Shown here piece by piece: positions 17,848 through 52,853 of a DNA stretch of 64,000 nt. The stretch is from Clostridiales bacterium (GTDB taxonomy: Bacteria; Bacillota; Clostridia; Oscillospirales; Acutalibacteraceae): NCBI GenBank assembly GCA_024697575.1, contig JAILFM010000128.1:7973-71972 (forward strand), written 5' to 3'. Both the position numbers and the translations under genes were made by a program. Within the stretch, counting starts at the first letter, position 1. Every line of letters starts with the position of its first letter. The notes under the pieces were generated by a model, which saw only the letters and a program-made list of their open reading frames with translations, was not told the DNA's origin and made no database searches.

Positions 17848-20800
17848 TTATTTTTTGAATTTCTTTATGAACGAGTCAAGCGGAGATTTGGCGGATGTAT
17901 CGTCTGCATTCGCGGTTTTCGCTTCGGCTTTTTTGATTGAAGGCGTCATATAAACGAACATAACCGAGCACTGCGTTGCTTCGGCGGCTTTAGTGAAAAT
18001 ACTGTAGCTCATGCCGTATTCAATCCACTTTTCAAGCCTTTGAGAGAGCATCTCAGGGCTGTTCCCCGAGGTAGATATTTTTTCAATAATTTTGTCTATA
18101 TTCATCTCTCCCAAAGTCTGCGCAAGCCCTGTCAAAGATTTTATTCCCTCCTCTGACATCAGTGCTTTAACGGCATCAACAAGCTCGCTGTTTTTGTTGA
18201 GAGATTTTTGGAGATCGGAAAGTGCCGAAAGTGTTTCAGGCAGATTTTCAACGGCGGCAATAACTTCAGGATCGCTTAAATCTTCAAGAAGTGACGACAG
18301 CGCCGGCATTGAATCGCCCATTCCCGCAAGCTTTGACAAAAGCCCGGCGACATTTGAATCGGTAAGGGCTTTGAGAGCTTTGATATTATCTTCATCCGTG
18401 AGAAGATTGATAAGCTCGTTAAGCTGCTCGGCATACTCAGGCTCACCGTACTTTGTAAGCAAATCAATTAGCTTGCGGTTGGATGAATAAAGGCTGAGCG
18501 CTTTTGAAATTGAGTTTACAAGTTCACCGACACCTTCGCCGCCCTTCTGAAGAGCACTAATTAGCTGCGCGGGATCGGTAAGTGAAACGGCATTTTCTAT
18601 ATCGCCCACAGCGGCGATAAGATTCTTCATCTGTTCCGATGTGTCGCCGGAACCGAGACCGATATTAAGGGCGCTGAGAGGTATCACCGCAAAATACATA
18701 TTGCCGAGTTCAAAATCGGAGGCGTTCGCAGTAACGCTTGCGCTTGAACCGAGGCTCATTCCGCTCAAGTCAGACAACCCCGCTTCGTCAAGTCCGAGAC
18801 TTTCGCTCATACCGGGCATACCGAAAAAGGCAACAATCTCTTTTGTCCCGTCGCCCAGCGATTTGCCGTTTTCAACCGTAACGGCAGTGAATTCACTCTC
18901 CGGCATAATGCACCCGCCGACCGCCACAACAGGCAGATAGATTTTTTGCTTTTTGCCGCCCAAATCAACGGTTTTATGCATGTTGTTTGTCATTTTTACC
19001 TGAATTTTAACTTTACCGCTCTTGCCCTTGATTTTTTCCGGTGAAATCTTTTTGCCGTCAAGATAATAGCTTATATCAAATGTTACAGGAAGCTTTTTAT
19101 CCGTAGTACCGCTGTAATAAAGGTCTGTAGTTGCCATGTTCCAAGCAACATTTTCGCCGTCTATAACCGGCTCGGTATCGTCCTTGATGCTTTCAATGTT
19201 TTTAAGGTCGCTTATGTCCTTTGCGCACACTTCGCCTTTGTCCGTGTGAAGCCAATCGGTAACATTGACCGCCTGCTCCCTGCCGTCACTGTCAATGTTA
19301 ACATAGACTGTTTCATTCTTTGTCAGAAAACCGGGCTCCGAGCTGTATGACAACTGCACGGGTTCGGCTGTTGTTTTATCATCGCCGACGGATTTTTCGC
19401 TTTTTGAGCCGCATGCGCAAAGGCTTAAAAGCATTGCAACAGTAATGACCGACGCCGCTGTGCGTTTTAATATGTTGTTTACACTCACTTTTCTTTTCTC
19501 CTTTTCTTTCTTCGGCGGTTTTTCGCTTTTCCAATACATAGTCGTTTTTCCTATAAGCGGTTCAAATGTCAGAAGAACCGGGGTCAGCAAAAGAATTATC
19601 ACAGCCGCACTGACAACCGCGCCCCTGGCAAGCATTGCGCAAAGGGATGAAACAATTTCTATATTGCACACGGCGTAAACTCCGAAAGTAGCGCTGAAGA
19701 AAACAAGCGCGCTCTGGAATATCGACACATCCGCCGCGTCGGCGGCATCTTTAATTGCCCTGCGCCTGTCCTTTCCCCTGCGCAGTTCTTCGCGAAATCT
19801 TGTTGTCAAAAGGATAGCGTAATCAACCGTTGCGCCAAGCTGAACGCAGGAAATAACCGTCGGGGCAATAAACGAAACATTTGCGCCTGTGATAAGAGGA
19901 AACGCTTCGTTGATAAAAATCGCAAGCTCGATAGCCGCAACAAGCAGTACCGGAATAAGAAGGGACTTGAAGCTGATTGCCATAAGAGTAAATATCGCCG
20001 CAATAGAAATAATATTGGTGATTTTAAAATCCCTGGCTGTGACTTCGATAAGGTCCTTGCTCATCGCTCCCTCGCCCGTCAGGTAGCCGTTCGGGTCGTA
20101 TTTTTTAATTATTGAGAGCATTTCTTCAATCTGGGCGTTTTCTTCATCCGATGACGCTTCAAAGCTTGTATTTATCATCATCATCTGATATCCGTCTTTA
20201 ACGGCGATTTCTTTAATCTTATCCGGCAGAACCTGTGAGGCTATTGCCGAACCGATATAAGAGTTAAGAGACACTATACCGGTTATTCCGTCAACATGGG
20301 ATATTTCTTCAATCATCTGCGACACCTTACCGCCGGGAGTATCGCTGTCAATAATAATAAAATGAGTGGTGGCCATGTTGAAGTCTTTTTTAAGCTTGTC
20401 AAGCGACTTTACAGACTGCAGCTGCTCCGGCAATGCGTTTGCAATACAGTAATCAAGCGGCACAACGCTTTTAAGGACAAACATGGGTACAATCAACGCA
20501 AGAAAAACCGCCGTAAACAGTCTGTTATGTTTAACGATAAAGTTATTTATTCCGGAAAAGGACGGCAAAATCCTCTTATGGCGGAATCTGCTTATCGGTT
20601 TGTCAAAAACAAGCAGGAAGGCGGGCAAAACAACAATGACCGTCGCAACGCCGAAAAGAACACCCTTCGCCATAACAATGCCTATATCAAAACCGAGAGT
20701 AAAGCTCATAAAACACAGCGCCAGAAAGCCGAAAATTGTTGTCAGTGAACTGCCGGTAAGGGAGAGGAAAGTTGAAACAACGGCGTTTGACATTGCGCTG

Positions 20801-21594
20801 CGGTTATCGGCGTTCTTTTGCTTTTCTTCATTAAACCTGTCCATCAGAAAGACGGAATAATCCATGGTAACGCCAAGCTGAAGTATTGCGGCAATGCTCT
20901 GCGTTATGTAGGAAATACCGCCGGGCATAAAAAAGTTGGTCCCCATATTATATATAACGGCATAACCCAGAGCAACAAGAAGAACAAACGGCAAAACAAA
21001 TGAATCCATTGTAAATGACAGGGCGATAAGGGCAAGCGCCACGGCAATTGCAATATACACCGGTGCCTCTTTGTCGGCAAGGTCCTTTGTTTCAGCCATA
21101 ATGGCACTCATTCCGCTGAGAAAACACTGTTTGTTGAGCAGCGATTTGATAGTTTTAATTGCCTTCATTGTTCCGGTTGACGCCGATGAACCACTGAACT
21201 GAATCATAACAAGCGTTGATCTGCCGTCGGGTGTATAAAAAACATCTTTCAAGGCGTCGGGCAGCGCCTGCTGAGGCACTGTGATATCGATGATATCATC
21301 GGCCCAGATAACATTGCTCACACCCTCAACCGCCGCTATTTTTTCTTTTAATTCTGACACATCTTTGCTTTTCATATTCTCTATAACAAGAAAAGCGTTG
21401 GCGGCGCACTCAAATTTTTCGTCAAGAATTTCTTCGCCCTGAACAGATTCAATACTTTGCGGAAGATATGACATAATATCATAATTGACAAAAGTGCTTA
21501 TATATCCAAAAGCGGCCGGAATAAGAAGAAGCGTTGCCGCAAGCAAAACCGTTTTCGGAAATTTGATGATAAATGAAGCAATTTTATGAACCAT
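17848..21594 (-). CDS. MMPL/RND-family transporter fused to a YhgE/Pip-like extracellular domain
   Basis: Two MMPL repeats (LGVTMDYSVFL..RFNEE and LGATVDYAILL..RFREE) in aa 1-~690, then TKNETVYV..VTDWL, LPVTFDISYYLDG and a helical region. Confidence 0.85.
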   Translation of the reverse strand: MVHKIASFIIKFPKTVLLAATLLLIPAAFGYISTFVNYDIMSYLPQSIESVQGEEILDEKFECAANAFLVIENMKSKDVSELKEKIAAVEGVSNVIWADDIIDITVPQQALPDALKDVFYTPDGRSTLVMIQFSGSSASTGTMKAIKTIKSLLNKQCFLSGMSAIMAETKDLADKEAPVYIAIAVALALIALSFTMDSFVLPFVLLVALGYAVIYNMGTNFFMPGGISYITQSIAAILQLGVTMDYSVFLMDRFNEEKQKNADNRSAMSNAVVSTFLSLTGSSLTTIFGFLALCFMSFTLGFDIGIVMAKGVLFGVATVIVVLPAFLLVFDKPISRFRHKRILPSFSGINNFIVKHNRLFTAVFLALIVPMFVLKSVVPLDYCIANALPEQLQSVKSLDKLKKDFNMATTHFIIIDSDTPGGKVSQMIEEISHVDGITGIVSLNSYIGSAIASQVLPDKIKEIAVKDGYQMMMINTSFEASSDEENAQIEEMLSIIKKYDPNGYLTGEGAMSKDLIEVTARDFKITNIISIAAIFTLMAISFKSLLIPVLLVAAIELAIFINEAFPLITGANVSFIAPTVISCVQLGATVDYAILLTTRFREELRRGKDRRRAIKDAADAADVSIFQSALVFFSATFGVYAVCNIEIVSSLCAMLARGAVVSAAVIILLLTPVLLTFEPLIGKTTMYWKSEKPPKKEKEKRKVSVNNILKRTAASVITVAMLLSLCACGSKSEKSVGDDKTTAEPVQLSYSSEPGFLTKNETVYVNIDSDGREQAVNVTDWLHTDKGEVCAKDISDLKNIESIKDDTEPVIDGENVAWNMATTDLYYSGTTDKKLPVTFDISYYLDGKKISPEKIKGKSGKVKIQVKMTNNMHKTVDLGGKKQKIYLPVVAVGGCIMPESEFTAVTVENGKSLGDGTKEIVAFFGMPGMSESLGLDEAGLSDLSGMSLGSSASVTANASDFELGNMYFAVIPLSALNIGLGSGDTSEQMKNLIAAVGDIENAVSLTDPAQLISALQKGGEGVGELVNSISKALSLYSSNRKLIDLLTKYGEPEYAEQLNELINLLTDEDNIKALKALTDSNVAGLLSKLAGMGDSMPALSSLLEDLSDPEVIAAVENLPETLSALSDLQKSLNKNSELVDAVKALMSEEGIKSLTGLAQTLGEMNIDKIIEKISTSGNSPEMLSQRLEKWIEYGMSYSIFTKAAEATQCSVMFVYMTPSIKKAEAKTANADDTSAKSPLDSFIKKFKK

Positions 21595-21601
21595 ATTTAT
21601 C

Positions 21602-22189
21602 CTATGCCTCCAATATCCTGAAAACTGAATTTTTCAGGTATTCTTTTACTTCGTCCATGCTAAACGGTATATTTCCCATAACTGCGTCGCACATAACAGA
21701 ACCGACAAGGTCGGTGATTAAATAAATTGTCATCTGCGCATCCCGCTCGCTGTAACCGTTCACCACAAACTGACTGACAAGCGTGTGACCGATTGACGAA
21801 TACTCTTCACTTTCACCCGAAAAAAAGGCTCTCACGCAAAGCGACAGTTTTTTGTCAAGTAAAGTAGTGAAGTTTTTATTTTTCTCCAAAAAATCACAGA
21901 CATAGCTGACCATGCAAAGAATCATATCGTTTAATGCTTTGCTTTTTACGCTGTTTTTAACAAACTTTATGGCATTTACAAGCAGTTCCGCGCTTTTATA
22001 GATTACAATCTGATCAAGCAAATCATATTTATCCTTGAAATACAGATAAAATGTACCCTTGGCAACGCCCGCCATCTTGACAATATCATCAACAGCCGTT
22101 GAAGTCACCGAGCTGATTGAAAAAAGATTAAAAGCGGAGTCAAGAATTCTTTTCCTTTTTATCTTCTTATTTTCTGCGGCAGAAGGCAT
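21602..22189 (-). CDS. TetR/AcrR-family transcriptional regulator
   Basis: HTH RILDSAFNLF..TAVDDIVKMAGVAKGTFYLYFKDKYDL. Start set at MPSAAE. Confidence 0.9.
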   Translation of the reverse strand: MPSAAENKKIKRKRILDSAFNLFSISSVTSTAVDDIVKMAGVAKGTFYLYFKDKYDLLDQIVIYKSAELLVNAIKFVKNSVKSKALNDMILCMVSYVCDFLEKNKNFTTLLDKKLSLCVRAFFSGESEEYSSIGHTLVSQFVVNGYSERDAQMTIYLITDLVGSVMCDAVMGNIPFSMDEVKEYLKNSVFRILEA

Positions 22190-22217
22190 TATATCATCCC
22201 CCGGTAGGTAAAATAAA

Positions 22218-22269
22218 TGACTGTCAGTCACTTTTTCTGAATCTTACTCCAAAAATGACTGACAGTCAA
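22218..22269 (-). promoter_or_regulatory. tetR-MMPL promoter with two palindromic operators
   Basis: Minus strand TTGACT-17 nt-TAAGAT. TGACTGWCAGTCA occurs at 22256-22268 (over the -35) and at 22218-22230 (just after the predicted +1). Confidence 0.85.
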
Positions 22270-39267: not shown

Positions 39268-40032
39268 TCAATTTTCACTCACTGCGTTGCCGGTAACAGA
39301 GGCAACATATGCTTTGGCATCTTTGATTTCCTTAAGAGCGTTTTCAACAGCCGAATCAACCCTCGCAATAACGTCATTGGAAAAATCAGAAGCGGATACT
39401 CTGATTTCTTCTGACCACTTATTTGCCTTGGCTATCGCTTCTTCGCTTGTTTTCTTCGCAAGCTGAACCATTTCTTCGGCTTTTCTGTAAGCATCCTTGA
39501 TTATTGAATCCGCCTGCTGCTGAGCGTCGGAAACGGTTGCAGCTGCAGCATCCTGAGCTTCCTTCGTGACGGTATCCGCCGTTTCGCGGGCCCTGATAAC
39601 AACCTCACTCGCTTCAACCATTGCCGCCGCCTCGGCGTCGGCGGCATTTTTAACGGCAGCCGCCTCTTCTTTAGCTGTGTTGACAATCTGCCTCGCCCTT
39701 GCTTCGGCTTCATCAACCTTGTTCTTACAATAGGTTTCGGTCTTCATGGCAAGGTCTCTGACCTTGTCTTCAGCCGCACTGACAAGAGCGCGCGATTTCT
39801 CCTGCGCAGTGGTCGTTGCGGCAACCGCCTCGTCCTTTGCCTTGACGAGAATATTGTTTCTGTCGGCAACGATAGCTTTCGCCTGCGCAATTTCTGTCGG
39901 CAAAGACAGGCGGATATCTTCAAGAAGTGTCTTCATCTGTTTGCCGTCAATTGCTATTTTGTTGCTGAAAGCAACCTTGGAACCGTTTTCGGCAAGGTCG
40001 TCAAGTTCATCAAGATACTGATCAATGTTCAT
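39268..40032 (-). CDS. Ala-rich coiled-coil protein downstream of coaD
   Basis: Start MNIDQYLDEL at 40032 overlaps the coaD stop; LPTEIAQAKAIVADRNNIL, then repeated EAxxIVxxA heptads. Confidence 0.75.
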   Translation of the reverse strand: MNIDQYLDELDDLAENGSKVAFSNKIAIDGKQMKTLLEDIRLSLPTEIAQAKAIVADRNNILVKAKDEAVAATTTAQEKSRALVSAAEDKVRDLAMKTETYCKNKVDEAEARARQIVNTAKEEAAAVKNAADAEAAAMVEASEVVIRARETADTVTKEAQDAAAATVSDAQQQADSIIKDAYRKAEEMVQLAKKTSEEAIAKANKWSEEIRVSASDFSNDVIARVDSAVENALKEIKDAKAYVASVTGNAVSEN

Positions 40033-41087: not shown

Positions 41088-44030
41088 TCAGCGTGAAATA
41101 TATTTTGACGGATCTTTTAACTCTCCGTTATAAATAACTTCAAAATGAAGGTGAGGACCGCTTGAGTTGCCGGTTGAGCCGACCTTACCGATTTGCTGAC
41201 CTGCCTCAACATACTCCCCAACTGAAACAGTTATTGAACCCACAACCATATGTGCGTATCTTGTCTTGAAGCCGTCACCGTGATTGATAAGAACCATCTG
41301 ACCGTAGCCGGACATTGAACGCTGAACAACCTCAACTCTGCCGGATTTTGCCGCGATTACGGGCGAACCGTATGCCGTGCCGTTACCGGTGCAAAGATCA
41401 ATTCCCTTATGCCAGCCGCTTGACCGCCAGCCGTATCCCGACGACGTGCTGCGGCAGTGAGGCGCCGGCCATAAAAAGCCGTAATCTGACGCTTCACCGA
41501 TATAAACGCCGTTATACGATGTCATGGAACCTACCATAACAACCTCATTAACCGGCTCAACAAGAGTATCAAAGGAATACTCCGTTCCGCTCATCTCTCC
41601 GTTAATATATGTAACGGTTTTGGTGACCCTCTCACTGCCGTCGACGCCCTTTTGAAGAACCGTAAAGAATCCGCTGTATTTCGAGGGATCTTTTTTCCGC
41701 TCGGTTGAATATTTTACCGTGCGTACGGAAGTGGTAGTCATGGTTTTTTTTATGTTTACAAGCCCGTCAACAACCGGCAAAAGGATTCTGTCGCCCACGA
41801 CAAGGTGCGTCAGATCATAATCCGGGTTGGCCTGCTGCACCATTTGCTCGGTAACGGAGTTTCTGTCACAGATTGAAGAAACGGTATCGCTTTCACTGAT
41901 GATATAAACCATGGTGTTGCCCTTTTCGCCGGCAACAACCGACTCGAGCTTTGACGGCTCCCATATGATATCTTCGCTGTCGGCGTAAGCCCCTTGGATA
42001 TAATCTATCTTTTCGGCAAAACCGATAACATAGCCTTCTTCCTCCGCCTGCTGTTCATAAGGCTCAAGAATATTGTAAAAAACCGTTTTAGCGTCCGTTT
42101 CATTCTTGACAGCGCATATAAACCTGCCGTCAATATATACTCCGCATGCGTCGGTCAGGTTATCAATACTGCTGTGAACCATTTTGTCGGATATAGTGTT
42201 CGCGTCGCTAAGTTTATCAAGTGATACGATTGCGAGGGCGTATTGTGAGGATGAACCTTCGGGCAGACTTTGTGACGCCGTCCGTTCAAGAAACTTATCT
42301 TTTGCGTCAAGAAAAACCGATTCGTCGCTTATATAGCCGATGCTCTCACCGTCATAGATAACCTCAAGAGCAAATGTCAGACTTTTCAAAGATGAGAAGG
42401 CTGTTATAAGAACAACAAGCGACGCTACGGGAAGAATATCAAAAAAAATGCTTTTAAAAAGTCCCCTGTGATTTATTAAAGCCTTTTTTGTATAATGTGA
42501 GATAACCCCCGGCAGTTTTTTCGGTTGAGCTATCGCTTTGCGAAACGCCCGTGACGATGTACGGATTTCAAAGCGGAAAACAGCCATTTCTTTAATAAAA
42601 GCCATTTTAGCTTTTTTTCTTGAAAGCCGTAAATCCTTTGTTAAAAGGCGGAATTTATCTCTTAAAAATATGAACGGAAAAGTAATAACAAAAACTATAA
42701 TTCGAAAAACAGTCGAAATTATTTTTGTGACACAATCGCCTAATGAATAAACAGCTTTGTATAAGGAACTTTTACCGTTAAAGGAAAAACTTTCTTCATT
42801 CTGATTTTCGGGCACAGATAAAGCTGAAATATCGGGCATGATATCCGATTTTTCTTCGTTTTCTCCGGTCAGAACGGTAATATTAAAAACCTCAGGTTCT
42901 TTTTGAATTCCTGTTTCCGAAGCGGGCAATTCACCGGCGGCAATGCTGTCGTGATTTTTCAGCGCTTTTTCAAGCTGCTGTGAATAACGGCGTTCTATAT
43001 CTTCGCGGATACCCTGCATTTCTATTTCGCTTTTTTCGCTGAACGCCTTTTTTCTCTCATCAAACCTCTTTTCCGCGTTAAAATCGGAGTAAGTTTCGGC
43101 AAGACTCTGAAATTTGTCCATTATCTCGTCAAAAATTCCGGAACCGGTGGCACTGTCAGCAGTTGTATTGCCGGATGAATTATTAATACAATTCATGCCG
43201 GTTAAAAAGCGCCTGACAGCGTCCTGCCATGACGGCAGACGGTCAAACCCGGCACTGTCGAGAGATGATTTTGATAACCGTGAATTTAAAGGTCTTTGCG
43301 CCCTTGAGGGATATTCTGCGGTTTTTATAGGTGTTACCGTTGTATTCTTACCGGCAACATCAAAAACGTATTTTGCAAGCTGAGCCCAGGAGCAAACGCC
43401 TTCGTTAGTTGCGTGGTAAACGCCGTATTTATCCGAAAAAACCATTGAACACAGCAGCGGCGCAAGGTCTTTAGTGTATGTCGGCGAACCGATTTGATCG
43501 TCAACAACACTGATACTGTCCTTTTCTTCGCTCAAGCGAAGCATGGTTTTTATAAAATTTTTGCCGTTTTCTCCGAAGACCCATGAAATCCTGACAATAA
43601 AATATTTTGAGCAGTTTTTTCTGATGATTTCCTCGCCCTGATATTTTGTTAATCCGTAATAGTTAACCGGGTTAACAGGCGAATCAATTCCGGAAAAATT
43701 TTCACCGGAGTTATCAAAAACATAGTCTGTACTTGTGTAAAGCAAAGCGGCATTGATTTTCTCACACGCCTTGGCAATGTATAAAGTTCCGTCGCAGTTA
43801 ATTTTTTTGCATTCATCCCTGTTTTCCTCTGCAGCGTCAACATCGGTAAAAGCGGCAAAATGCATAACAGCGTCGGGTTTTTCACGAAACAGAAATTCCG
43901 AAATCTCTTTTTCGTCAGTTATATCAATATCCGGCAGGTCGGCGCCGATGCATTCAATGTTGTTCTTAAGCAAAAATTCAACAACGTCGCTGCCAAGCTG
44001 ACCCTTAGACCCTGTCACAACAATTTTCAT
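41088..44030 (-). CDS. rfbD: dTDP-4-dehydrorhamnose reductase (RfbD/RmlD) fused to a membrane-anchored LysM-G5-M23 peptidase
   Basis: aa 1-278: GSKGQLG, STDYVF, YGLTK, RISWVFG and DDQIGSPTY. C-terminus: LysM (ISESDTVSSI..LVVGDRILLP), G5 (KGVDG..VTYING..EPVNEVVMVG) and M23 (HKGIDL, RYAHM, GPHLHFEV). Confidence 0.85.
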   Translation of the reverse strand: MKIVVTGSKGQLGSDVVEFLLKNNIECIGADLPDIDITDEKEISEFLFREKPDAVMHFAAFTDVDAAEENRDECKKINCDGTLYIAKACEKINAALLYTSTDYVFDNSGENFSGIDSPVNPVNYYGLTKYQGEEIIRKNCSKYFIVRISWVFGENGKNFIKTMLRLSEEKDSISVVDDQIGSPTYTKDLAPLLCSMVFSDKYGVYHATNEGVCSWAQLAKYVFDVAGKNTTVTPIKTAEYPSRAQRPLNSRLSKSSLDSAGFDRLPSWQDAVRRFLTGMNCINNSSGNTTADSATGSGIFDEIMDKFQSLAETYSDFNAEKRFDERKKAFSEKSEIEMQGIREDIERRYSQQLEKALKNHDSIAAGELPASETGIQKEPEVFNITVLTGENEEKSDIMPDISALSVPENQNEESFSFNGKSSLYKAVYSLGDCVTKIISTVFRIIVFVITFPFIFLRDKFRLLTKDLRLSRKKAKMAFIKEMAVFRFEIRTSSRAFRKAIAQPKKLPGVISHYTKKALINHRGLFKSIFFDILPVASLVVLITAFSSLKSLTFALEVIYDGESIGYISDESVFLDAKDKFLERTASQSLPEGSSSQYALAIVSLDKLSDANTISDKMVHSSIDNLTDACGVYIDGRFICAVKNETDAKTVFYNILEPYEQQAEEEGYVIGFAEKIDYIQGAYADSEDIIWEPSKLESVVAGEKGNTMVYIISESDTVSSICDRNSVTEQMVQQANPDYDLTHLVVGDRILLPVVDGLVNIKKTMTTTSVRTVKYSTERKKDPSKYSGFFTVLQKGVDGSERVTKTVTYINGEMSGTEYSFDTLVEPVNEVVMVGSMTSYNGVYIGEASDYGFLWPAPHCRSTSSGYGWRSSGWHKGIDLCTGNGTAYGSPVIAAKSGRVEVVQRSMSGYGQMVLINHGDGFKTRYAHMVVGSITVSVGEYVEAGQQIGKVGSTGNSSGPHLHFEVIYNGELKDPSKYISR

Positions 44031-44141
44031 TCCGGCGCCCCCTTCCTCTCAATATTGAATAAACTACTGTAATCAGCAAAAATTCACTATATTATAGCAC
44101 AACAATACGAAGTAAACAACAATAATTTTTTTGTTATACTG

Positions 44142-44170
44142 TTGACAAACCGCGAAAGTTCTGCTAGAAT
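44142..44170 (+). promoter_or_regulatory. sigma70-type promoter for tRNA-Gly
   Basis: TTGACA-17 nt-TAGAAT. Confidence 0.8.
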
Positions 44171-44183
44171 ACCACCTGTTGTT

Positions 44184-44259
44184 GCGGATGTAGCTCATCT
44201 GGTAGAGCGCCACCTTGCCAAGGTGGAGGTAGCGAGTTCGAGCCTCGTCATCCGCTCCA
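44184..44259 (+). tRNA. tRNA-Gly (GCC)
   Basis: 76 nt: acceptor stem GCGGATG/CATCCGC, D-loop, anticodon stem CCACC-TTGCCAA-GGTGG, TTCGA loop and encoded CCA. Confidence 0.97.
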
Positions 44260-44405: not shown

Positions 44406-47400
44406 TTATTTTGCGTTTTTGGGAGTAAGAGTCGGCAATGTGCCGGTCTTGGTCCACTGAGTCCATCTGTAGTTCGGGTCGTCTGTTCTTGTATCCTTCT
44501 TGCCGTCACCGTTCGTGTCAACATATGAATACTGATTCTTAAGCATCATATAGTTGAAGAGCGTGTCAATATCGTTCTTATCAATATTAAGCTTTGTTGT
44601 GTCAGGATAGACGCCGGGCGATACTGTTGAGAAGTCAACATCAGCGGCAACCTTCTGAGCGGGCTTAAGCGAAACAAGGTTTTCGCCCTGACTTGCGGCG
44701 AGCATGTAAAGGTAGTCAGTTGTGTCGATTCTTGTGTCACCGTTGATATCGCCGAAGATAACAGCTGTGTAGCTGTATGCAGGTGAACCGTTCGCAAGGG
44801 TACCGGTAAGAACAGAACCTGTGCCGTAGCCTTTTTCACCCTGGATAACTTCGGGAACCGATGCCGCAAGACCGGTTACACGGAAGTCTTTGCTGGAAAG
44901 CTGAGCGGCTTCTCTGCCAAGGAACAGGAAACGGTAGATTGTATCATTGCCGTTTGCGTCAATCTCTGTAACAACAGTTGTGTTGCCGTCGTCGTCGGTA
45001 GGCTTGATTGTGGGAACAGTGTTGAAAACAAGATTACTGATTGCCTTATTAAGGTTATCAATAAGCTGGTCAATGAAATCCTGCTGGTCAATTGTACCGT
45101 GATAGTTAACCTTGTCGGAAACCTCAGCGAATCTTACAATATGCGCCGCATCATATTCACCGACGAGCGCCGCGTATGTTGTGGGATCTATTTCGTAGGC
45201 CGGGGCAACACCCTGAGAAGCGTCAGTTGTCTTTTCACCGTTCGCAGTGAAGTAAACCTGGAGACCGTCATCTGTCTTAAGAAGATTATTGCCGTATTTG
45301 ATTATTTCATAAGCTCTGGCAAGAACGGCATCCATGTTCGCCCAGTCAATCTTTTCGCCGGCAGGTTTAAGAGCGCGCCATGCTCTGTACAGGCCCTTGA
45401 AAGCGTGGGTAACCATTGTCTGGGTAAGGTCGGTTGTGTTGACCTTGGCGGTGTTAATCAGACAGGTAGCAAAGTCATACGCTTTATAGAAATCGGAGAA
45501 TGTGTTAACAGTCCACATAATCTCACTGTCAATTATTCTCCTGCCGTCAACGTAAACATAGATAACGTTGCCGTTCTCATCTCTTGAATATCTGTAGTTT
45601 CTTCTGCCGCTTTCACCTGTAAGGTCGGGTTTAACAAGGTTTACAAGCCACTGAAGAGCAGTTGTGTCAACAACAGTAAGTCTGCGGCTTTCGGCAAGGT
45701 CGAAACGCCAGCCGAGAAGATCATAGTAATCAAGGATATTATCCTGATAATCTACAACAGCGGTGATATATTTCTGATAAGCTTTCCTTATCTGCTTCTT
45801 CACCTGATCCGTATCGGTTGTGCCGGTGACAGCACTGTTTGAAGGAACAACAGAGCAGTCATCATACGATTCACCGTTCTTGATATAAATCTTGCAGATT
45901 GATGTCGGTTCTTTAACGGGTGTGGATGATGTCGACTGAAGCGCCTGTGTAGCAGTTGAAAGGAATCTGAAATAAGGTCTTGAGATTTCCATTTTTTCGG
46001 TATCGAATGTATAACCGAGGTCGGCACACATCTGGGTAACCGTCTGAACCTGAGCGGCTGAAAGATCCTGGAGTGAATTAATAGTGCCATGGTATGTGTT
46101 TTTTGCATCCGGGATAAAATCTACACTGTTTGAATTAAGAGCAAGTTTTACAACATCTTCCGTCTGCTGTTTTGTAAGCGGAACATTGCAGGACGGATCC
46201 TGTCCGAGGCTTATTGCAAAAGCCAGAGTTTCATAATTCTTGGTGTTGATATTGTTAAGCTTAAATGTTTTTGTCGGCTGAGCACCGGTATGGCTTTCAA
46301 GACCGTCGTTAATGGTAAAGGAGTTTGTCGAAGCAAGTTCAAAGAACGGGAAAATCGAATTGGGAACAGCAGGCGCCGAATCATCGGCTACACCGTCATT
46401 ATCGGAGTCCAAGAGAGTTGCCTTAAGAAGTCTTGTCCTGATTGAATACGCCATCCAATCTCCGTAAGCTGAACCTAAGTCTTCCTGATAAAACTTTTCG
46501 TACTCTGTTACGAATTCATCAACCTGTTCAATGGCGTCATCGGCTCTGCCGTAATACTTATATGCGCCGATTTTGTTGATATTGAAGTCCTCGCAGTGGA
46601 ACATAAGGTAACCGTTCGGGTCATAGCTGACGGTACCGCCGTTCGCCGCTGAGCGCGGAGTGTAGGAAGCGTATGAGAAGTTTGAATAATTCATTACAAT
46701 GTCGCCGAAGCTGTCCTGGGTTTCGGTAGCCGTACCGGCGATTTCAAGATAGCTTCTCGAAGTTGTCAGGTAATAGATTGAATGTCTGCGGTTAAGCTCA
46801 TCCTTATAGATTTCTCTCTCAGTGCCACCGTTTTCAAAATATTTTGATGCCGCCTCCGCGTCAATGGCGTTTGTGTAACCGTACTTGAACGTTACATAGT
46901 GCATATCGGTTGTGCCGGGAACAAGCTCTTCACTGACTGTTGCGCCCGCATTCTGTTCGGCAAGCAACGCGTTCTTTGTTGAAAGCTGTATTGTCAGCTG
47001 ATTTTCAGGTATTCTGACTGTGTTGTTGCGGTTATCAAGAGCATTTGAATAGTTCTTAAGATCTTCAATGCCATAGTTTGTATTGGTATAGTACTGTGCC
47101 TCAGCCCTGGGAACGGTGTCGTTTCTCATAAGAAGCGGCATAATAGTCGCAAGGAATGCGGGACCGTAGTAATAAAGGTCGGCAATTAAGCAACTCAGAA
47201 TAATCGCAACATTACCGGAATAGAGAAGACCGGTATCGCTTGTGGATGTAAGGCGTGTTACGCGTGTGGGGATACTGAATATCTGAAGCTTGGTTGTGCT
47301 TCCGGAGACAAAGCCAGACCTTGCGACAGTATCGGCCTTGTAGTTTGAAGGCATGGACATACCGGCATGCGGGAATACACCGTTGCCGCCCATCAGCATA

Positions 47401-50132
47401 CCGATTACTCTGTCAAGAAGAGAAATTACAACAGCGATTATATTGCCGCTGTATCTGCCGTCACAGCCGAGGTCGCCCGTTACATTTGCGGAAAGAATGC
47501 TCAGGAATTTCTGAAGGTCAAGGTGACTGAGTGAATTAGCGAACCAATCGATTGCAAAGCCCCAGACGCCTTCGTCCGCTATCGGGCATTCATCGGTGTT
47601 GACAAGCCAGGTTATAGGCGTAATCTGGGTGAGGGTTGCGTCTACGAAACTCCAGCAGCAGCTGAAATCCGCGTTGGCAACCGCGGTCCTTGAGTTGTAG
47701 CCGCTGCTGCCGTAAATGGTTGTTACCATGGTGTTTACAAGATCCTGCCAAACGCCCTTCTTTGAGCCGGGGATAAGTGAAAGGCCGTCGTTTGAAAGAG
47801 AACCCGCGATGTTTGAATATGTCTGAGCGGAGCCGGTCTTTGATCCGGTCATAACAGAAGCAAAGTTTGTTATACCCCAGAGACAGAATTCATATGTAAA
47901 CTGTTCAAATGTCGTCGTCTGATACGGGTCGTTGTTGTTGTAGTAGGAGAAATTAACAGGTGTGATGTCCCAGATACCGTTAAGGAAGTAAGCGCCGGAA
48001 ATCGCGCCGATATCAAGCGCCGCTCTGGGTATTTCAACCGTCCTTGTCTTTGTTGTGCCGGTCTTTGAGTCAACATAGGTGTTTGAAGCCATTTCAACCC
48101 AGGGCAATTCCGCAACATCGCCGACAACAAGTCTGCCGCTCGCGTCACGGTAGCCGATCTTCTTGCCCGTTGTTTCGGATACATAGCAAACCGCATTTTC
48201 ACCGAACTTTGCCTTCAGCGCTTCGGGATGGTGGTTGTAGTAGTACGCGTCAAGTCTTTCATAAAGGTCAAGACCCGGCAGATAGTTCATAACATTCGCC
48301 GCAAGGGTATAAGCGCCCGCGCCGGATATGGAGTCACAGAACTCGGGGAAGTAAATATCGTCAACAAACGAATTGAAGACAATCTTGACAATGCCGGCAT
48401 AAACCTGCTGCATTGAGAGGACATACTTAAATTTGATTAACGAGGGATTTTTATAATCGGATTGAGAAGGATCGGTTGTGTTGACAACTGCGCCTTCGGT
48501 GTATGTGCCGTCCGCATTGGCGGTTACATAGCGGTACTGCGAAGTTTTCGCATCGCCTGTATCGATTGATTTGAACACAACGGATGAAGGTTTGCTGAAT
48601 GTTCCGAAGGTTTCAAGAAGAACCTGGTCTTCAAGGACAACCTGCTCGCCGCCTACATTGCTGATAATGTCAACAGGAGGAACGGTTTCTGTCATTTCAG
48701 CCGTTGTGTAGCAGATGCCGTCGGGAACATCAAGACCCATCATCGGGAAGAACCCGGGAAGGAGTCTGCAAAGGTCGTTGAGAAGAGCCATGAGGTTGTC
48801 TGTAATGTTGATTCCGCTCACATCGATTTTGATGAAGGCCTCAAGGCCGCCGTCTTCGAGAAGCCAGTCAAGAAACGCATTAATTTTCGGAACGGGATAA
48901 ATATCGGCATCGCCTTCGAATTTAATTTCAGGCGCGCCGTTATCCTCAAGAAGCGAAACTACAGCGCCGATGATGAGGCCGCCGGTTGATCCGGGGGCTA
49001 TTGCGCTCTCATTACCCAGACCGTTATTCTTTGTCACATCAACGTCAAGAGCGTTGATGAGCGCATTGTAGAGAAACTCACGAGCCAAACCGTTAAGAGC
49101 GGCGGTAATGGCGTTGTAGCCGAGCTGATAGAGATCCATATGCTTATCCGCTTTGCCGTCGCCGTCAGAGTCAAACATCTGACCATAAATGCCGGCTTCA
49201 CCGGGAAGCCCCTTCATACCGGGCAGAATAGCTTCATGATTTTCACCGAGCATCGACCTACCGCCGTCAGCCGCGCTTGAACCTGTGCCGTCAATCAAAG
49301 CCCAGTTAACGAGGCTCTGGATACCGTCGTCAATTGTTTTGCCCTCGGGCAGACCGGTATCTTCGGTAGTGTCGTCAATAAGCGATGAATAGAGTATTCT
49401 CTCAACAAGCTGACCGGGGTTGGCGATTATCTCCTTAATGGTCATGCCGTTGATTTTTTTGTCGATTTTTTTGATAATAAAATCAAGGATCGTGCCGAAC
49501 TCCGCATCACCGCACAGAAGCTTTGTCAGCGGCTCCTGCTGGTTGTAAAGCCATGTCAGCAGTGACATAAGAACCTTGAGATCGGATGAAGGAGTACCGG
49601 TGCGGTCGCGCTTACCGTCGGCCTTTCTGTAAATCGAGGACGAAAGACCCTGCGAGTTAAGATCCTCGACAACGCCGAGATTGACCATTTTAAGAATACT
49701 CGTTAAAGCGCCTGTAACACCGATACCTATGAGCTTGGCTTTGACGATCGTTTTGTCGCTGTCATTTACCATGCCGACAAGATGCCTGATCGTGTAGCAC
49801 AGATCGTCAACGGATGACAGATAGAATGTGATCCTGAGGAATGTACTGGCATCCTCATCACCAAGAGCGTAAATCTCCATTGACTCTTCAAAGCTTTCGC
49901 CGAGCATCTTATCTAACTGATCAAGAAGATACGACGCGCCCTGCTCCGGTGTGAACTTCAGTTTGTCAACCGAATCAAGGTAACTCGCCGCGTCTGTATG
50001 CACGCCGTCACGAAAAGCCGTGTAATCCCAGGTGGATCTGACCGTTGTTTTTGCAAAAACGGTCACACCGGCACCGGAAAAAATCATGACCGCGGCAATC
50101 AAGAGCGTAAAAATTCGCTTTGCCTGTTTCAT
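44406..50132 (-). CDS. Giant secreted/surface protein with a C-terminal dockerin-like domain
   Basis: Signal peptide (MKQAKRIFTLLIAAVMIFSGAGVTVFA); FIVAR-like helical segments; GTGSVL..YTAVIFGDINGDTRIDTTDY..AADVD..IDKND; several DxDxDG motifs. Confidence 0.8.
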   Translation of the reverse strand: MKQAKRIFTLLIAAVMIFSGAGVTVFAKTTVRSTWDYTAFRDGVHTDAASYLDSVDKLKFTPEQGASYLLDQLDKMLGESFEESMEIYALGDEDASTFLRITFYLSSVDDLCYTIRHLVGMVNDSDKTIVKAKLIGIGVTGALTSILKMVNLGVVEDLNSQGLSSSIYRKADGKRDRTGTPSSDLKVLMSLLTWLYNQQEPLTKLLCGDAEFGTILDFIIKKIDKKINGMTIKEIIANPGQLVERILYSSLIDDTTEDTGLPEGKTIDDGIQSLVNWALIDGTGSSAADGGRSMLGENHEAILPGMKGLPGEAGIYGQMFDSDGDGKADKHMDLYQLGYNAITAALNGLAREFLYNALINALDVDVTKNNGLGNESAIAPGSTGGLIIGAVVSLLEDNGAPEIKFEGDADIYPVPKINAFLDWLLEDGGLEAFIKIDVSGINITDNLMALLNDLCRLLPGFFPMMGLDVPDGICYTTAEMTETVPPVDIISNVGGEQVVLEDQVLLETFGTFSKPSSVVFKSIDTGDAKTSQYRYVTANADGTYTEGAVVNTTDPSQSDYKNPSLIKFKYVLSMQQVYAGIVKIVFNSFVDDIYFPEFCDSISGAGAYTLAANVMNYLPGLDLYERLDAYYYNHHPEALKAKFGENAVCYVSETTGKKIGYRDASGRLVVGDVAELPWVEMASNTYVDSKTGTTKTRTVEIPRAALDIGAISGAYFLNGIWDITPVNFSYYNNNDPYQTTTFEQFTYEFCLWGITNFASVMTGSKTGSAQTYSNIAGSLSNDGLSLIPGSKKGVWQDLVNTMVTTIYGSSGYNSRTAVANADFSCCWSFVDATLTQITPITWLVNTDECPIADEGVWGFAIDWFANSLSHLDLQKFLSILSANVTGDLGCDGRYSGNIIAVVISLLDRVIGMLMGGNGVFPHAGMSMPSNYKADTVARSGFVSGSTTKLQIFSIPTRVTRLTSTSDTGLLYSGNVAIILSCLIADLYYYGPAFLATIMPLLMRNDTVPRAEAQYYTNTNYGIEDLKNYSNALDNRNNTVRIPENQLTIQLSTKNALLAEQNAGATVSEELVPGTTDMHYVTFKYGYTNAIDAEAASKYFENGGTEREIYKDELNRRHSIYYLTTSRSYLEIAGTATETQDSFGDIVMNYSNFSYASYTPRSAANGGTVSYDPNGYLMFHCEDFNINKIGAYKYYGRADDAIEQVDEFVTEYEKFYQEDLGSAYGDWMAYSIRTRLLKATLLDSDNDGVADDSAPAVPNSIFPFFELASTNSFTINDGLESHTGAQPTKTFKLNNINTKNYETLAFAISLGQDPSCNVPLTKQQTEDVVKLALNSNSVDFIPDAKNTYHGTINSLQDLSAAQVQTVTQMCADLGYTFDTEKMEISRPYFRFLSTATQALQSTSSTPVKEPTSICKIYIKNGESYDDCSVVPSNSAVTGTTDTDQVKKQIRKAYQKYITAVVDYQDNILDYYDLLGWRFDLAESRRLTVVDTTALQWLVNLVKPDLTGESGRRNYRYSRDENGNVIYVYVDGRRIIDSEIMWTVNTFSDFYKAYDFATCLINTAKVNTTDLTQTMVTHAFKGLYRAWRALKPAGEKIDWANMDAVLARAYEIIKYGNNLLKTDDGLQVYFTANGEKTTDASQGVAPAYEIDPTTYAALVGEYDAAHIVRFAEVSDKVNYHGTIDQQDFIDQLIDNLNKAISNLVFNTVPTIKPTDDDGNTTVVTEIDANGNDTIYRFLFLGREAAQLSSKDFRVTGLAASVPEVIQGEKGYGTGSVLTGTLANGSPAYSYTAVIFGDINGDTRIDTTDYLYMLAASQGENLVSLKPAQKVAADVDFSTVSPGVYPDTTKLNIDKNDIDTLFNYMMLKNQYSYVDTNGDGKKDTRTDDPNYRWTQWTKTGTLPTLTPKNAK

Positions 50133-50906: not shown

Positions 50907-52853
50907 ATGGACGAACAGACAAGAAACAACTATGCCCCCGCGCAGGATATGAACGAGCTGCGCAAAGTACGCCTTGAAAAGCTTCAGTCACTTCAAAGTG
51001 AAGGCAAGGATCCTTTTCAAATAACAAAATACGATGTCACAAATCACAGCGGCGATATAAAAGGTGATTTTGACTCTTTTGAAGGCAAAACCGTTTCCCT
51101 CGCCGGCAGAATGATGTCAAAGCGCATCATGGGAAAGGCAAGCTTTTGCAACATTCAGGACCTTACCGGCAATATTCAGTGCTATGTCGCAAGGGACAGC
51201 ATAGGCGAAGAGAGCTACGCCGGGTTCAAAAAATTCGACGTCGGCGATATAATCGGTATCGAAGGCGCGGTCTTTAAGACAAAAACGGGTGAAATCTCAA
51301 TTCATGCGTCAAAAGTCACTCTTCTCACAAAAAGCCTTCAGACTCTGCCGGAAAAATATCACGGGCTGACCAACACCGATGTCCGCTACCGTCAGAGATA
51401 TACCGACCTGATTATGAATCCGGAGGTTAAAGACACTTTCGTTAAGCGGTCAAAAATCATATCTTCAATCCGCTCATACCTTGAAGACAGAGGATTCATC
51501 GAAGTTGAAACGCCCATGCTCGTTTCAAACGCCGGCGGAGCGGCGGCAAGACCCTTTGAAACGCATTACAACGCCCTTAACGAAGACGTTAAACTCAGAA
51601 TATCCCTTGAACTGTATCTCAAGCGACTTATTGTCGGCGGTCTTGAAAAAGTTTTTGAAATCGGGCGCGTTTTCCGCAATGAGGGTGTTGACACCCGCCA
51701 CAATCCGGAATTTACCCTGATGGAGCTTTATCAGGCATATACCGATTATCACGGCATGATGGATTTAACCGAGGATATGTTCCGCCATCTTGCCATGAAG
51801 GTCTGCGGTTCAACAACAATCAAATACGGTGAAAATATCATTGATTTAGGCAAGCCCTTCCGCCGCCTGACCATGATTGACGCCGTCAAAGAGTACGCCG
51901 GTGTTGATTTTGACAAGATTCCCGATACCGAAACCGCAAAAGCAATCGCCCGTGAAAAGCATGTTGAATTTGAAGACCGGCACACCAAGGGAGATATTCT
52001 TAACCTCTTCTTTGAGGAATACTGCGAAGAGAAGCTTATTCAGCCAACCTTTATTATGGATCACCCGGTTGATGTTTCACCGCTGACAAAGCGTAAGCCC
52101 GATAAACCGGACTATGTGGAACGCTTCGAGCTTTTCATAAATACATGGGAAATGTGCAACGCTTACAGCGAGCTCAACGACCCGGTCGACCAGCGCGAGC
52201 GTTTCAAAGCGCAGGACGCTGCTGCGGCGGCGGGTGACGAGGAAGCCAACCACACCGACGAAGACTTCCTCAACGCCCTCGAAATCGGCATGCCGCCTAC
52301 AGGCGGAATAGGCTACGGCATTGACAGGCTTGTAATGCTTTTGACAGATTCCCCGGCAATCAGAGATGTTCTGCTTTTCCCGACAATGAAGAGCATTGAC
52401 ATTGATAAAAAACCGGCTGAAAGCGAAAACGAGGAGACACAGCCTGCAGAGCAGCCCGCCGAAAAAGAAGAGATTATTGATTTTTCAAATGTGGAAATCG
52501 AAGAGCTGTTTAAAGACTCGGTTGACTTTGAAACTTTCTCAAAAAGCGATTTTCGCGCCGTCAAAGTTCTCGAATGCTCAGCCGTTCCCAAATCAAAAAA
52601 GCTTCTTGAATTTAAACTCGATGACGGTTCCGGCGAAACAAGAACGATTCTCAGCGGCATTCACGCATATTACGAGCCCGAAGAACTTGTCGGCAAAACC
52701 TGCATAGCAATCACTAACCTTCCTCCCAGGCAGATGATGGGCATTGAAAGCTGCGGCATGCTGCTGTCAGCTGTTCACAAGGAAAACGGTGAAGAAAAGC
52801 TGCACCTTCTTATTGTGGATAATCATATCCCCGCCGGAGCAAAGCTGTATTAA
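50907..52853 (+). CDS. lysS: Lysine-tRNA ligase (class II) with an appended C-terminal tRNA-binding OB-fold
   Basis: [42 protein letters not shown] and RDVLLFP, plus about 110 aa resembling the MetRS C-terminal/Trbp111 domain. Confidence 0.96.

Follow-up and report, generated by a model that had tools for sequence, protein, structure and literature searches.

The 64-kb stretch of Clostridiales bacterium DNA analyzed here (assembly GCA_024697575.1, contig JAILFM010000128.1), hereafter called the window, carries a gene in which a dTDP-4-dehydrorhamnose reductase (RmlD, also known as RfbD) runs without interruption into a membrane-anchored peptidoglycan hydrolase of the M23 peptidase type. According to the list of open reading frames (ORFs) in the window, the fused ORF is stop-free for 980 codons and, with its stop codon, occupies positions 41088..44030 on the minus strand. 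Its ATG (44030-44028) is preceded on the same strand by a strong Shine-Dalgarno (SD) sequence read from the DNA, GAGGAAGGGGG (44037..44048).

The N-terminal module (residues 1-278; 43197..44030, minus strand) is recognized as RmlD by Pfam, NCBIfam, and structure alignments. The Pfam family RmlD_sub_bind (PF04321) matches residues 1-278 with an E-value of 3.4e-91 and 305.7 bits, covering positions 1-284 of a model with 287 positions, and the NCBIfam rmlD equivalog TIGR01214, whose cut-off is 224 bits, gives 286 bits. An alignment spanning the whole of residues 1-276 (1e-56 to 1e-65) is obtained with the solved RmlD proteins GacA of Streptococcus pyogenes (4WPG), RfbD of Bacillus anthracis (3SC6), and 1VL0 of Clostridium acetobutylicum. 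When aligned to 3SC6 and 1VL0, the dinucleotide-binding GxxGxxG motif reads G7-S-K-G-Q-L-G13, and the T/Y/K triad is present as T101 (within STDYVF) and Y125-G-L-T-K129. In GacA, the catalytic triad consists of T101, Y127, and K131 (PMC4832382). Because the solved RmlD structures align through L276, and have only 5-6 residues beyond the equivalent of L276, the module can be regarded as complete. Known monomeric RmlD proteins are soluble and ~280-300 amino acids (aa) long, whereas the chain in the window runs 700 residues further into a membrane protein.

The remainder of the chain represents a family of otherwise independent hydrolases. The next best database matches (P0002-P0012, n = 11) are 45-51% identical, align with residues ~279-980 only, and are standalone proteins of 681-738 aa. 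The start methionine of all 11 homologs aligns with M279, and conserved motifs begin ~20 residues further on. These peptidases, from uncultured Clostridia and Oscillospiraceae, share with the window protein the motifs in the cytoplasmic region, the hydrophobic segments, the domain at residues 552-705, the G5 domain, and the M23 site. Unlike the window protein, they start at the equivalent of M279 and have no N-terminal enzyme domain. The C-terminal part of the window protein keeps nearly all of the positions that are conserved across the 11 homologs. More distant members of the family (P0263, P0179, P0196, P0199, and P0237) carry long N-terminal extensions in which no Pfam domain was found.

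Immediately after the RmlD module lies an acidic region at residues 279-425 (42756..43196, minus strand) with 29 D/E versus 16 K/R residues. It is predicted to be cytoplasmic and, in a low-confidence model, rich in helices, and it carries the conserved motifs FDEIMD-F and EMQ-IREDIERRYS-QLE. Next is a hydrophobic segment, H1 (about residues 433-457; 42660..42734, minus strand), which in the homologs exceeds the second segment in hydrophobic moment and includes 1-4 charges (2-4 in 10 of 11). With these properties, H1 probably forms a helix that is amphipathic or only marginally suited to the membrane. The juxtamembrane segment that follows (about residues 458-523; 42462..42659, minus strand) is basic and thus predicted to be cytoplasmic by the positive-inside rule. 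Residues 458-527 include 20 K/R versus 4 D/E, and the net charge of this region across the family is +12 to +18. The second hydrophobic segment, H2 (about residues 524-550; 42381..42461, minus strand), is free of charges in 11 of 11 homologs and has one Asp in the window copy; hydropathy and charge predict a single signal-anchor transmembrane (TM) helix.

The simplest reading of this arrangement is a topology in which the N terminus lies inside, H1 rests on the membrane or dips into it, H2 forms the single span, and the C-terminal domains are outside. A charge-free H2 located behind a segment with a charge of +12 to +18 argues for an N-in orientation, which is compatible with a cytoplasmic RmlD; a signal peptide is absent. 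Because the natural N terminus of the hydrolase would itself be cytoplasmic, the added RmlD should cause no export problem.

Beyond the predicted membrane span is a conserved, presumably extracytoplasmic domain (about residues 552-705; 41916..42377, minus strand), which has no Pfam match and appears as an alpha/beta fold in the low-confidence model. It is followed by a LysM-like segment (residues 709-752; 41775..41906, minus strand) that is borderline, with PF01476 scoring 19.8 bits for the whole protein and 21.4 bits for a sub-fragment versus a cut-off of 20.9. This segment is absent from 4 of the 11 homologs and clear in several. The G5 domain (residues 765-835; 41526..41738, minus strand) is matched with an E-value of 5e-14 and 52.7 bits for PF07501 versus a gathering score of 23. 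The chain closes with a Peptidase_M23 catalytic domain (PF01551; residues 874-974; 41109..41411, minus strand), which is matched at 4.5e-28 and 97.7 bits versus a gathering score of 28.7, over positions 3-96 of a 96-position model. The zinc and catalytic motifs of M23 enzymes have been defined as HxxxD and HxH (PMC9662197). Here, H874-x-x-x-D878, H927, and H960-x-H962 are intact, and they are invariant in 12 of 12 aligned sequences.

An original prediction, made from the letters of the sequence alone, anticipated much of this organization. The stop-free 980-codon frame with its RfbD motifs (GSKGQLG, T101, and Y125xxxK129), the charged linker of ~150 aa (residues 279-425), and the M23 domain with HxxxD and HxH ligands were all found as claimed. 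Its hydrophobic segments correspond to two hydropathy peaks (~433-457 and 524-550), but it is doubtful that both are TM segments, and H2 alone resembles a clean span. Likewise, the proposed LysM/G5/M23 series stands for G5 and M23, which exceed their gathering scores, while LysM is borderline. The statement that the window has no other rml genes agrees with the absence of RmlA and RmlC homologs from the 64-kb window by tblastn, although RmlB was not searched separately.

The architecture is unique among the proteins searched. In a search of 5.8 billion protein clusters, the sole match covering both halves was the window's own protein. A HMMER scan of 1.84 billion representatives, which stand for about 15 billion proteins, revealed no second RmlD+M23 protein among the best 150 matches (at least 225 bits). 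A fusion with a recognizable RmlD should rank among these 150 because RmlD alone scores 225-313 bits. Nothing relevant to this combination was found in the literature searched, consistent with the claim of the original prediction that the architecture had not been described. Thus, the RmlD-M23 combination is new, whereas its parts (RmlD, G5, and M23, with LysM borderline) belong to known families. The order LysM-G5-M23 had already been noted in a review of M23 peptidases (PMC9662197), but the membrane-anchored LysM/G5/M23 subfamily to which the window protein belongs is without a characterized member.

LytM, lysostaphin, ShyA, MepM, DipM, EnvC, and SpoIIQ share the M23 fold signature with the window protein, in which HxxxD and HxH are intact as in the active enzymes, but their N-terminal organization differs. 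All named M23 equivalogs in NCBIfam score far under their cut-offs, indicating that the window protein is no ortholog of any named M23 enzyme. Other fusion proteins (RmlC-RmlD, RmlA-like-RmlD, RmlD-glycosyltransferase, and RmlD-flippase-like) show that RmlD can accept a partner on its N- or C-terminal side, and this partner mostly belongs to the same pathway. The partners in question are polysaccharide-synthesis enzymes, either cytoplasmic or in the membrane, whereas in the databases searched only the window protein has a peptidoglycan hydrolase as its partner. RmlD seems unusually prone to fusion. Among the database matches (P0013-P0120, P0167, P0191, and P0211), it is joined to a second short-chain dehydrogenase/reductase, RmlC, an RmlA-like nucleotidyltransferase, GT2 and GT1-like transferases, a PF01943 flippase-like protein, and PF10131.

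A conserved rmlD-M23 gene pair and the loss of its spacer

The two halves of the fused gene have separate counterparts that lie side by side in related genomes. The contigs of eight M23 homologs were looked up and other fetched loci were scanned by tblastn, giving 12 distinct loci (L001-L006, L085, L130 (=L132), L165, L166 (=L167), L168, and L169). In all 12, the M23 gene is immediately preceded, in the same orientation, by a standalone rmlD gene encoding 280-296 aa. The RmlD proteins encoded by these neighbors are the closest to that of the window, with 55-61% identity (46% in L006), while database RmlD hits reach up to 56%. That they are slightly closer than the best database hits is as expected for orthologs.

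Genomic context provides evidence that the pair itself is maintained. An ispE-PHP block upstream of rmlD is shared by nine of the loci, which group closely together. In this group (L001-L005, L165, L166, L168, and L169), a divergent PHP-domain gene adjoins rmlD (67-90% identity), and an ispE-like GHMP kinase gene accompanies the PHP gene wherever the contig reaches far enough. The block is absent from the window, L006, and L130, which keep the rmlD-M23 pair (fused in the window). Therefore, the pair itself is conserved, and is not merely part of a larger frozen block. In total, the adjacency spans three genomic contexts and extends down to 46% RmlD and 37% M23 identity.

At the eight loci read at the nucleotide level, RmlD has a real stop codon 5-8 residues past the conserved sequence W-Q-(D/N)-A-(L/V)-x-R-(F/Y/C)-L. 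The spacer between rmlD and the M23 gene is 18-164 nt long at these loci, and a GGAG-type SD sequence precedes the ATG in 8 of 8. A promoter-like element, TTGT(A/G)(A/T)-N17-TATAAT, is located within the spacer in 6 of the 8 (L001 5958-5986; L002 5810-5838; L003 4939-4967; L004 4940-4968; L005 2916-2944; L085 931-959), which suggests that the hydrolase gene normally has its own transcript in these relatives.

Two candidates arising from these loci were set aside. A CGGCATA...TATGCCG hairpin followed by T's was noticed by eye as a possible spacer terminator in L003, L005, and L085, where the promoter-like element overlaps it, but the hairpin does not satisfy the scanner and is not claimed as a terminator. 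Junction-spanning tblastn hits in L001, L004-L006, L085, L125, and L147 initially resembled independent fusions; a real stop codon follows RmlD in every one of them, and in L125 and L147 no M23 gene comes after it.

The spacer is missing from the corresponding region of the window. The fusion junction (43194..43208, minus strand), defined from the sequence and the family alignment, comprises a run of five T's (T5), the codons for T277 and G278, and the ATG of M279 (43196-43194). The T5 run is located at 43204-43208, as the original prediction had stated, within the codons for F275 (TTT) and L276 (TTA). The protein reads ...W-Q-D-A-V-R-R-F275-L276-T-G-M279-N-C-I-N-N... across this site, and the junction peptide is FLTGMNCINNSSGNTTADSATGSGIFDEIMDK. 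Between the final conserved residue of RmlD and the ancestral start of the hydrolase lie just two codons. The RmlD tail, the stop codon, the promoter-like element, and the SD sequence that are associated with the spacer in relatives are all missing. Whereas the standalone M23 genes that were read have their own SD sequence and mostly their own promoter-like element, the window has neither before M279. Such an arrangement would be expected after a deletion of roughly 100 bp, and it is not one that a homopolymer miscall could produce.

Two further features of the junction were considered and rejected. The hairpin at 43229-43214, immediately ahead of the T run, is weakly terminator-like and is attributed to chance: it lies inside the conserved WQDAV codons, and the count of such hairpins is not clearly above that in shuffled sequences. 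There is also no evidence for programmed -1 slippage on UUUUUA, which would release a free RmlD ending at the adjacent UAA, and the canonical heptamer is absent.

Origin and possible role of the fusion

On balance, and with moderate confidence, we favor the view that the ORF is genuine and that two genes which were neighbors in the ancestor have become fused in frame, specifically in this lineage. A deletion would have taken the last few rmlD codons, the rmlD stop codon, and the whole intergenic spacer. The sequence left behind, ...WQDAVRRFL-TG-M279..., would then join a complete RmlD to the former start methionine of a LysM/G5/M23 peptidoglycan endopeptidase. The predicted product is a bitopic membrane protein whose cytoplasmic portion would consist of RmlD and the existing ~250-aa N-terminal region of the hydrolase (acidic helices, the amphipathic H1, and the basic stretch). 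Outside the membrane would be the domain at residues 552-705, LysM, G5, and an active-looking M23 domain. Most likely, each half would keep its own chemistry, with dTDP-4-dehydrorhamnose being reduced at the expense of NAD(P)H on the cytoplasmic side and the peptide bonds of peptidoglycan being cut on the outer side. The hydrolase would now depend on the rmlD promoter and start codon, and the fusion would fix the two halves at a 1:1 ratio and pin RmlD at the membrane beside the cytoplasmic tail of the hydrolase. Gram-positive RmlD proteins act as monomers (PMC4832382). Because of this, and because RmlD is often fused to other partners, a C-terminal extension is likely to be tolerated and is structurally plausible.

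Because rmlD and the M23 gene are conserved neighbors, their joining can be viewed as a Rosetta-stone event, which lends indirect support to a functional link. As in other such events, the 12 relatives have the components as separate genes, side by side and in one orientation, and one lineage has them fused. Here, however, the fusion has been seen once, so the usual functional inference is weak. One speculative extension is that, in this clade of Clostridia, RmlD, or the dTDP-rhamnose pathway, docks on the conserved cytoplasmic N-terminal region of the hydrolase. Such docking would coordinate the synthesis of rhamnose polysaccharides with the opening of peptidoglycan, and the partnership would have become covalent in the window lineage. 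We regard this as unlikely.

Several observations weigh against a genuine fusion that yields a working protein. The frame rests on a single 5-nt homopolymer, where four T's (T4) or six (T6) would each give a stop codon. The fusion is also a singleton, present on one contig of one assembly from an uncultured, gut-type member of the Clostridia. No second fused locus or protein was found in the protein databases, the metagenome scan, or the loci of relatives. Furthermore, no sequence from the same species or genus was recovered from the protein database (where the next best match has 50% identity), by exact-protein look-up, or by a metagenome scan for the junction peptide. In addition, H1 in the window is more hydrophobic than in the homologs (Kyte-Doolittle value of 2.38, one charge), and should H1 be a true membrane span, the M23 domain would end up in the cytoplasm if RmlD is there too. 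Finally, an AlphaFold2 model based on the 12-sequence alignment (mean pLDDT of 46.5, pTM of 0.22) does not resolve even the M23 domain and is too poor to back the predicted topology or any fold.

Some of these observations would fit a real DNA fusion that is a recent neutral or damaging lesion of one strain or population, with the M23 domain mis-inserted, under-expressed, or separated by cleavage of the linker. A singleton gives no sign of persistence across species, neither the promoter-like element nor the SD sequence of the hydrolase gene survives, H1 is unusually hydrophobic, and a protease could plausibly attack the long, disordered, acidic linker. Yet the conserved C-terminal positions are nearly all kept, including every M23 active-site residue, and RmlD retains all of its catalytic motifs. 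A complete RmlD domain meets the hydrolase cleanly and in frame, and the gene, which has a strong SD sequence, is the first of an operon that also contains rsmD and coaD. Given this degree of preservation, we judge a lesion of this type to be quite improbable, although the fusion, as a singleton in a single assembly, could be functionally neutral.

We are more doubtful still of an assembly or sequencing indel in the T5 run, in which case the true genome would have two genes and the hydrolase would be translated by coupling. Homopolymers are a classic site of indel errors, the genes are split in 12 of 12 relatives, and no other fused protein was found among about 15 billion. Both alternative run lengths lead immediately to a stop codon. 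With T4, RmlD would end ...RRF-TAA and the M23 ATG would follow 5 nt further on; with T6, RmlD would end ...RFFNRHELY-TAA and overlap the M23 start by 17 nt. However, T4 truncates RmlD before a residue that is kept in 46 of 46 standalone RmlD proteins, and T6 places F at a position where all 46 have L, I, V, or M. None of the 46 ends earlier or has F at this position, none matches the product expected from T4 or T6, and the residue is L in each of the eight syntenic relatives whose RmlD C terminus was read. Moreover, the spacer and SD sequence found in 8 of 8 relatives, and the promoter-like element found in 6 of 8, are missing whatever the number of T's.

The remainder of the window also argues against such an error. 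A crude test found no SD sequence ahead of M279; by the same test, SD sequences are present at 28 of 44 window ORFs (~64%) versus 5.7% of internal ATGs. ORFs of at least 200 aa make up 89% of the window, and the 389 homopolymer runs of at least 5 nt inside them break no gene. Twenty window ORFs, which took in every suspicious same-strand overlapping pair, were scanned with Pfam, and no split domain was seen in the 17 that gave a match (three gave none). Thus, the conservation of L276, the lack of an SD sequence before M279, and the lack of indel signs elsewhere in the window favor T5, and the assembled junction is very likely correct. The original prediction had held that an extra T at 43204-43208, together with the lack of a fusion in any independent genome, would speak for split genes. 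Indeed, the fusion was not found in any independent genome and the two genes are split in each of the 12 relatives, but the T5 run is supported by the residue at L276 in 46 of 46 RmlD proteins and by the loss of the spacer.

Least probable in our estimation is a dedicated device across the membrane of the kind that the original prediction proposed. In such a device, the activity of RmlD or the state of its ligands (dTDP-sugar, NAD(P)H) would be mechanistically coupled to where or when M23 cuts peptidoglycan, coordinating rhamnose-polysaccharide supply with wall remodeling. The adjacency of the genes across three contexts to 46% RmlD and 37% M23 identity, the strongly conserved cytoplasmic region of the hydrolase that could bind a partner, and the aberrant cell division of Streptococcus mutans on loss of rmlD (PMC4832382) would suit it, but the pair need not be co-regulated given the hydrolase's own promoter-like element in most relatives, the fusion is seen once only, and the RmlD product is a soluble nucleotide sugar, so the position of RmlD should matter little.

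A genuine fusion of adjacent genes, the reading preferred here, would bear on a poorly understood matter, the coordination of wall-polysaccharide insertion with controlled peptidoglycan cutting in Gram-positive bacteria. In streptococci, cell division is known to be disturbed when rhamnose synthesis is lost (PMC4832382). The firmer finding is the conserved rmlD-M23 pair of uncultured gut and rumen Clostridia and Oscillospiraceae, to which the single fusion adds. Together, the pair and the fusion nominate a concrete pair of proteins for coordinating wall synthesis with cutting, and they draw attention to an uncharacterized M23 hydrolase family whose members are anchored in the membrane and share a conserved cytoplasmic domain. 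Were the fusion only an accident of one genome, it would still be a clear example of gene fusion by spacer deletion, with little wider consequence.

Genes surrounding the fusion

The fused gene is the first in a run of genes that point the same way, among them rsmD and coaD. Downstream of the fusion, this run includes a HAD hydrolase gene and a gene (39268-40032, minus strand) for an Ala/Glu-rich protein of ~254 aa that is probably a coiled coil and has no Pfam match. Upstream of the fused gene is an ORF of 1908 aa (44406-50132, minus strand) with a hydrophobic N terminus and no Pfam match at 1e-4. Dockerin-like D-x-N/D-G-D calcium-loop repeats are visible by eye near its C terminus, and a strong terminator-like hairpin (44392-44365) closes the gene.

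Between these two genes, and divergent from the fused gene, is a tRNA-Gly(GCC) gene, directly upstream of which lies a near-consensus TTGACA-17-TAGAAT promoter-like site (44142-44259, plus strand, for the two). Farther away, a 648-aa class II lysyl-tRNA synthetase (50907-52853, plus strand) carries an extra C-terminal tRNA_bind domain of the Trbp111/EMAP-like type. On the other side of the fusion, a gene for a 1248-aa MMPL-family transporter is located directly downstream of a same-strand TetR-family regulator gene (17848-22231, minus strand), and the two probably constitute one regulated operon.

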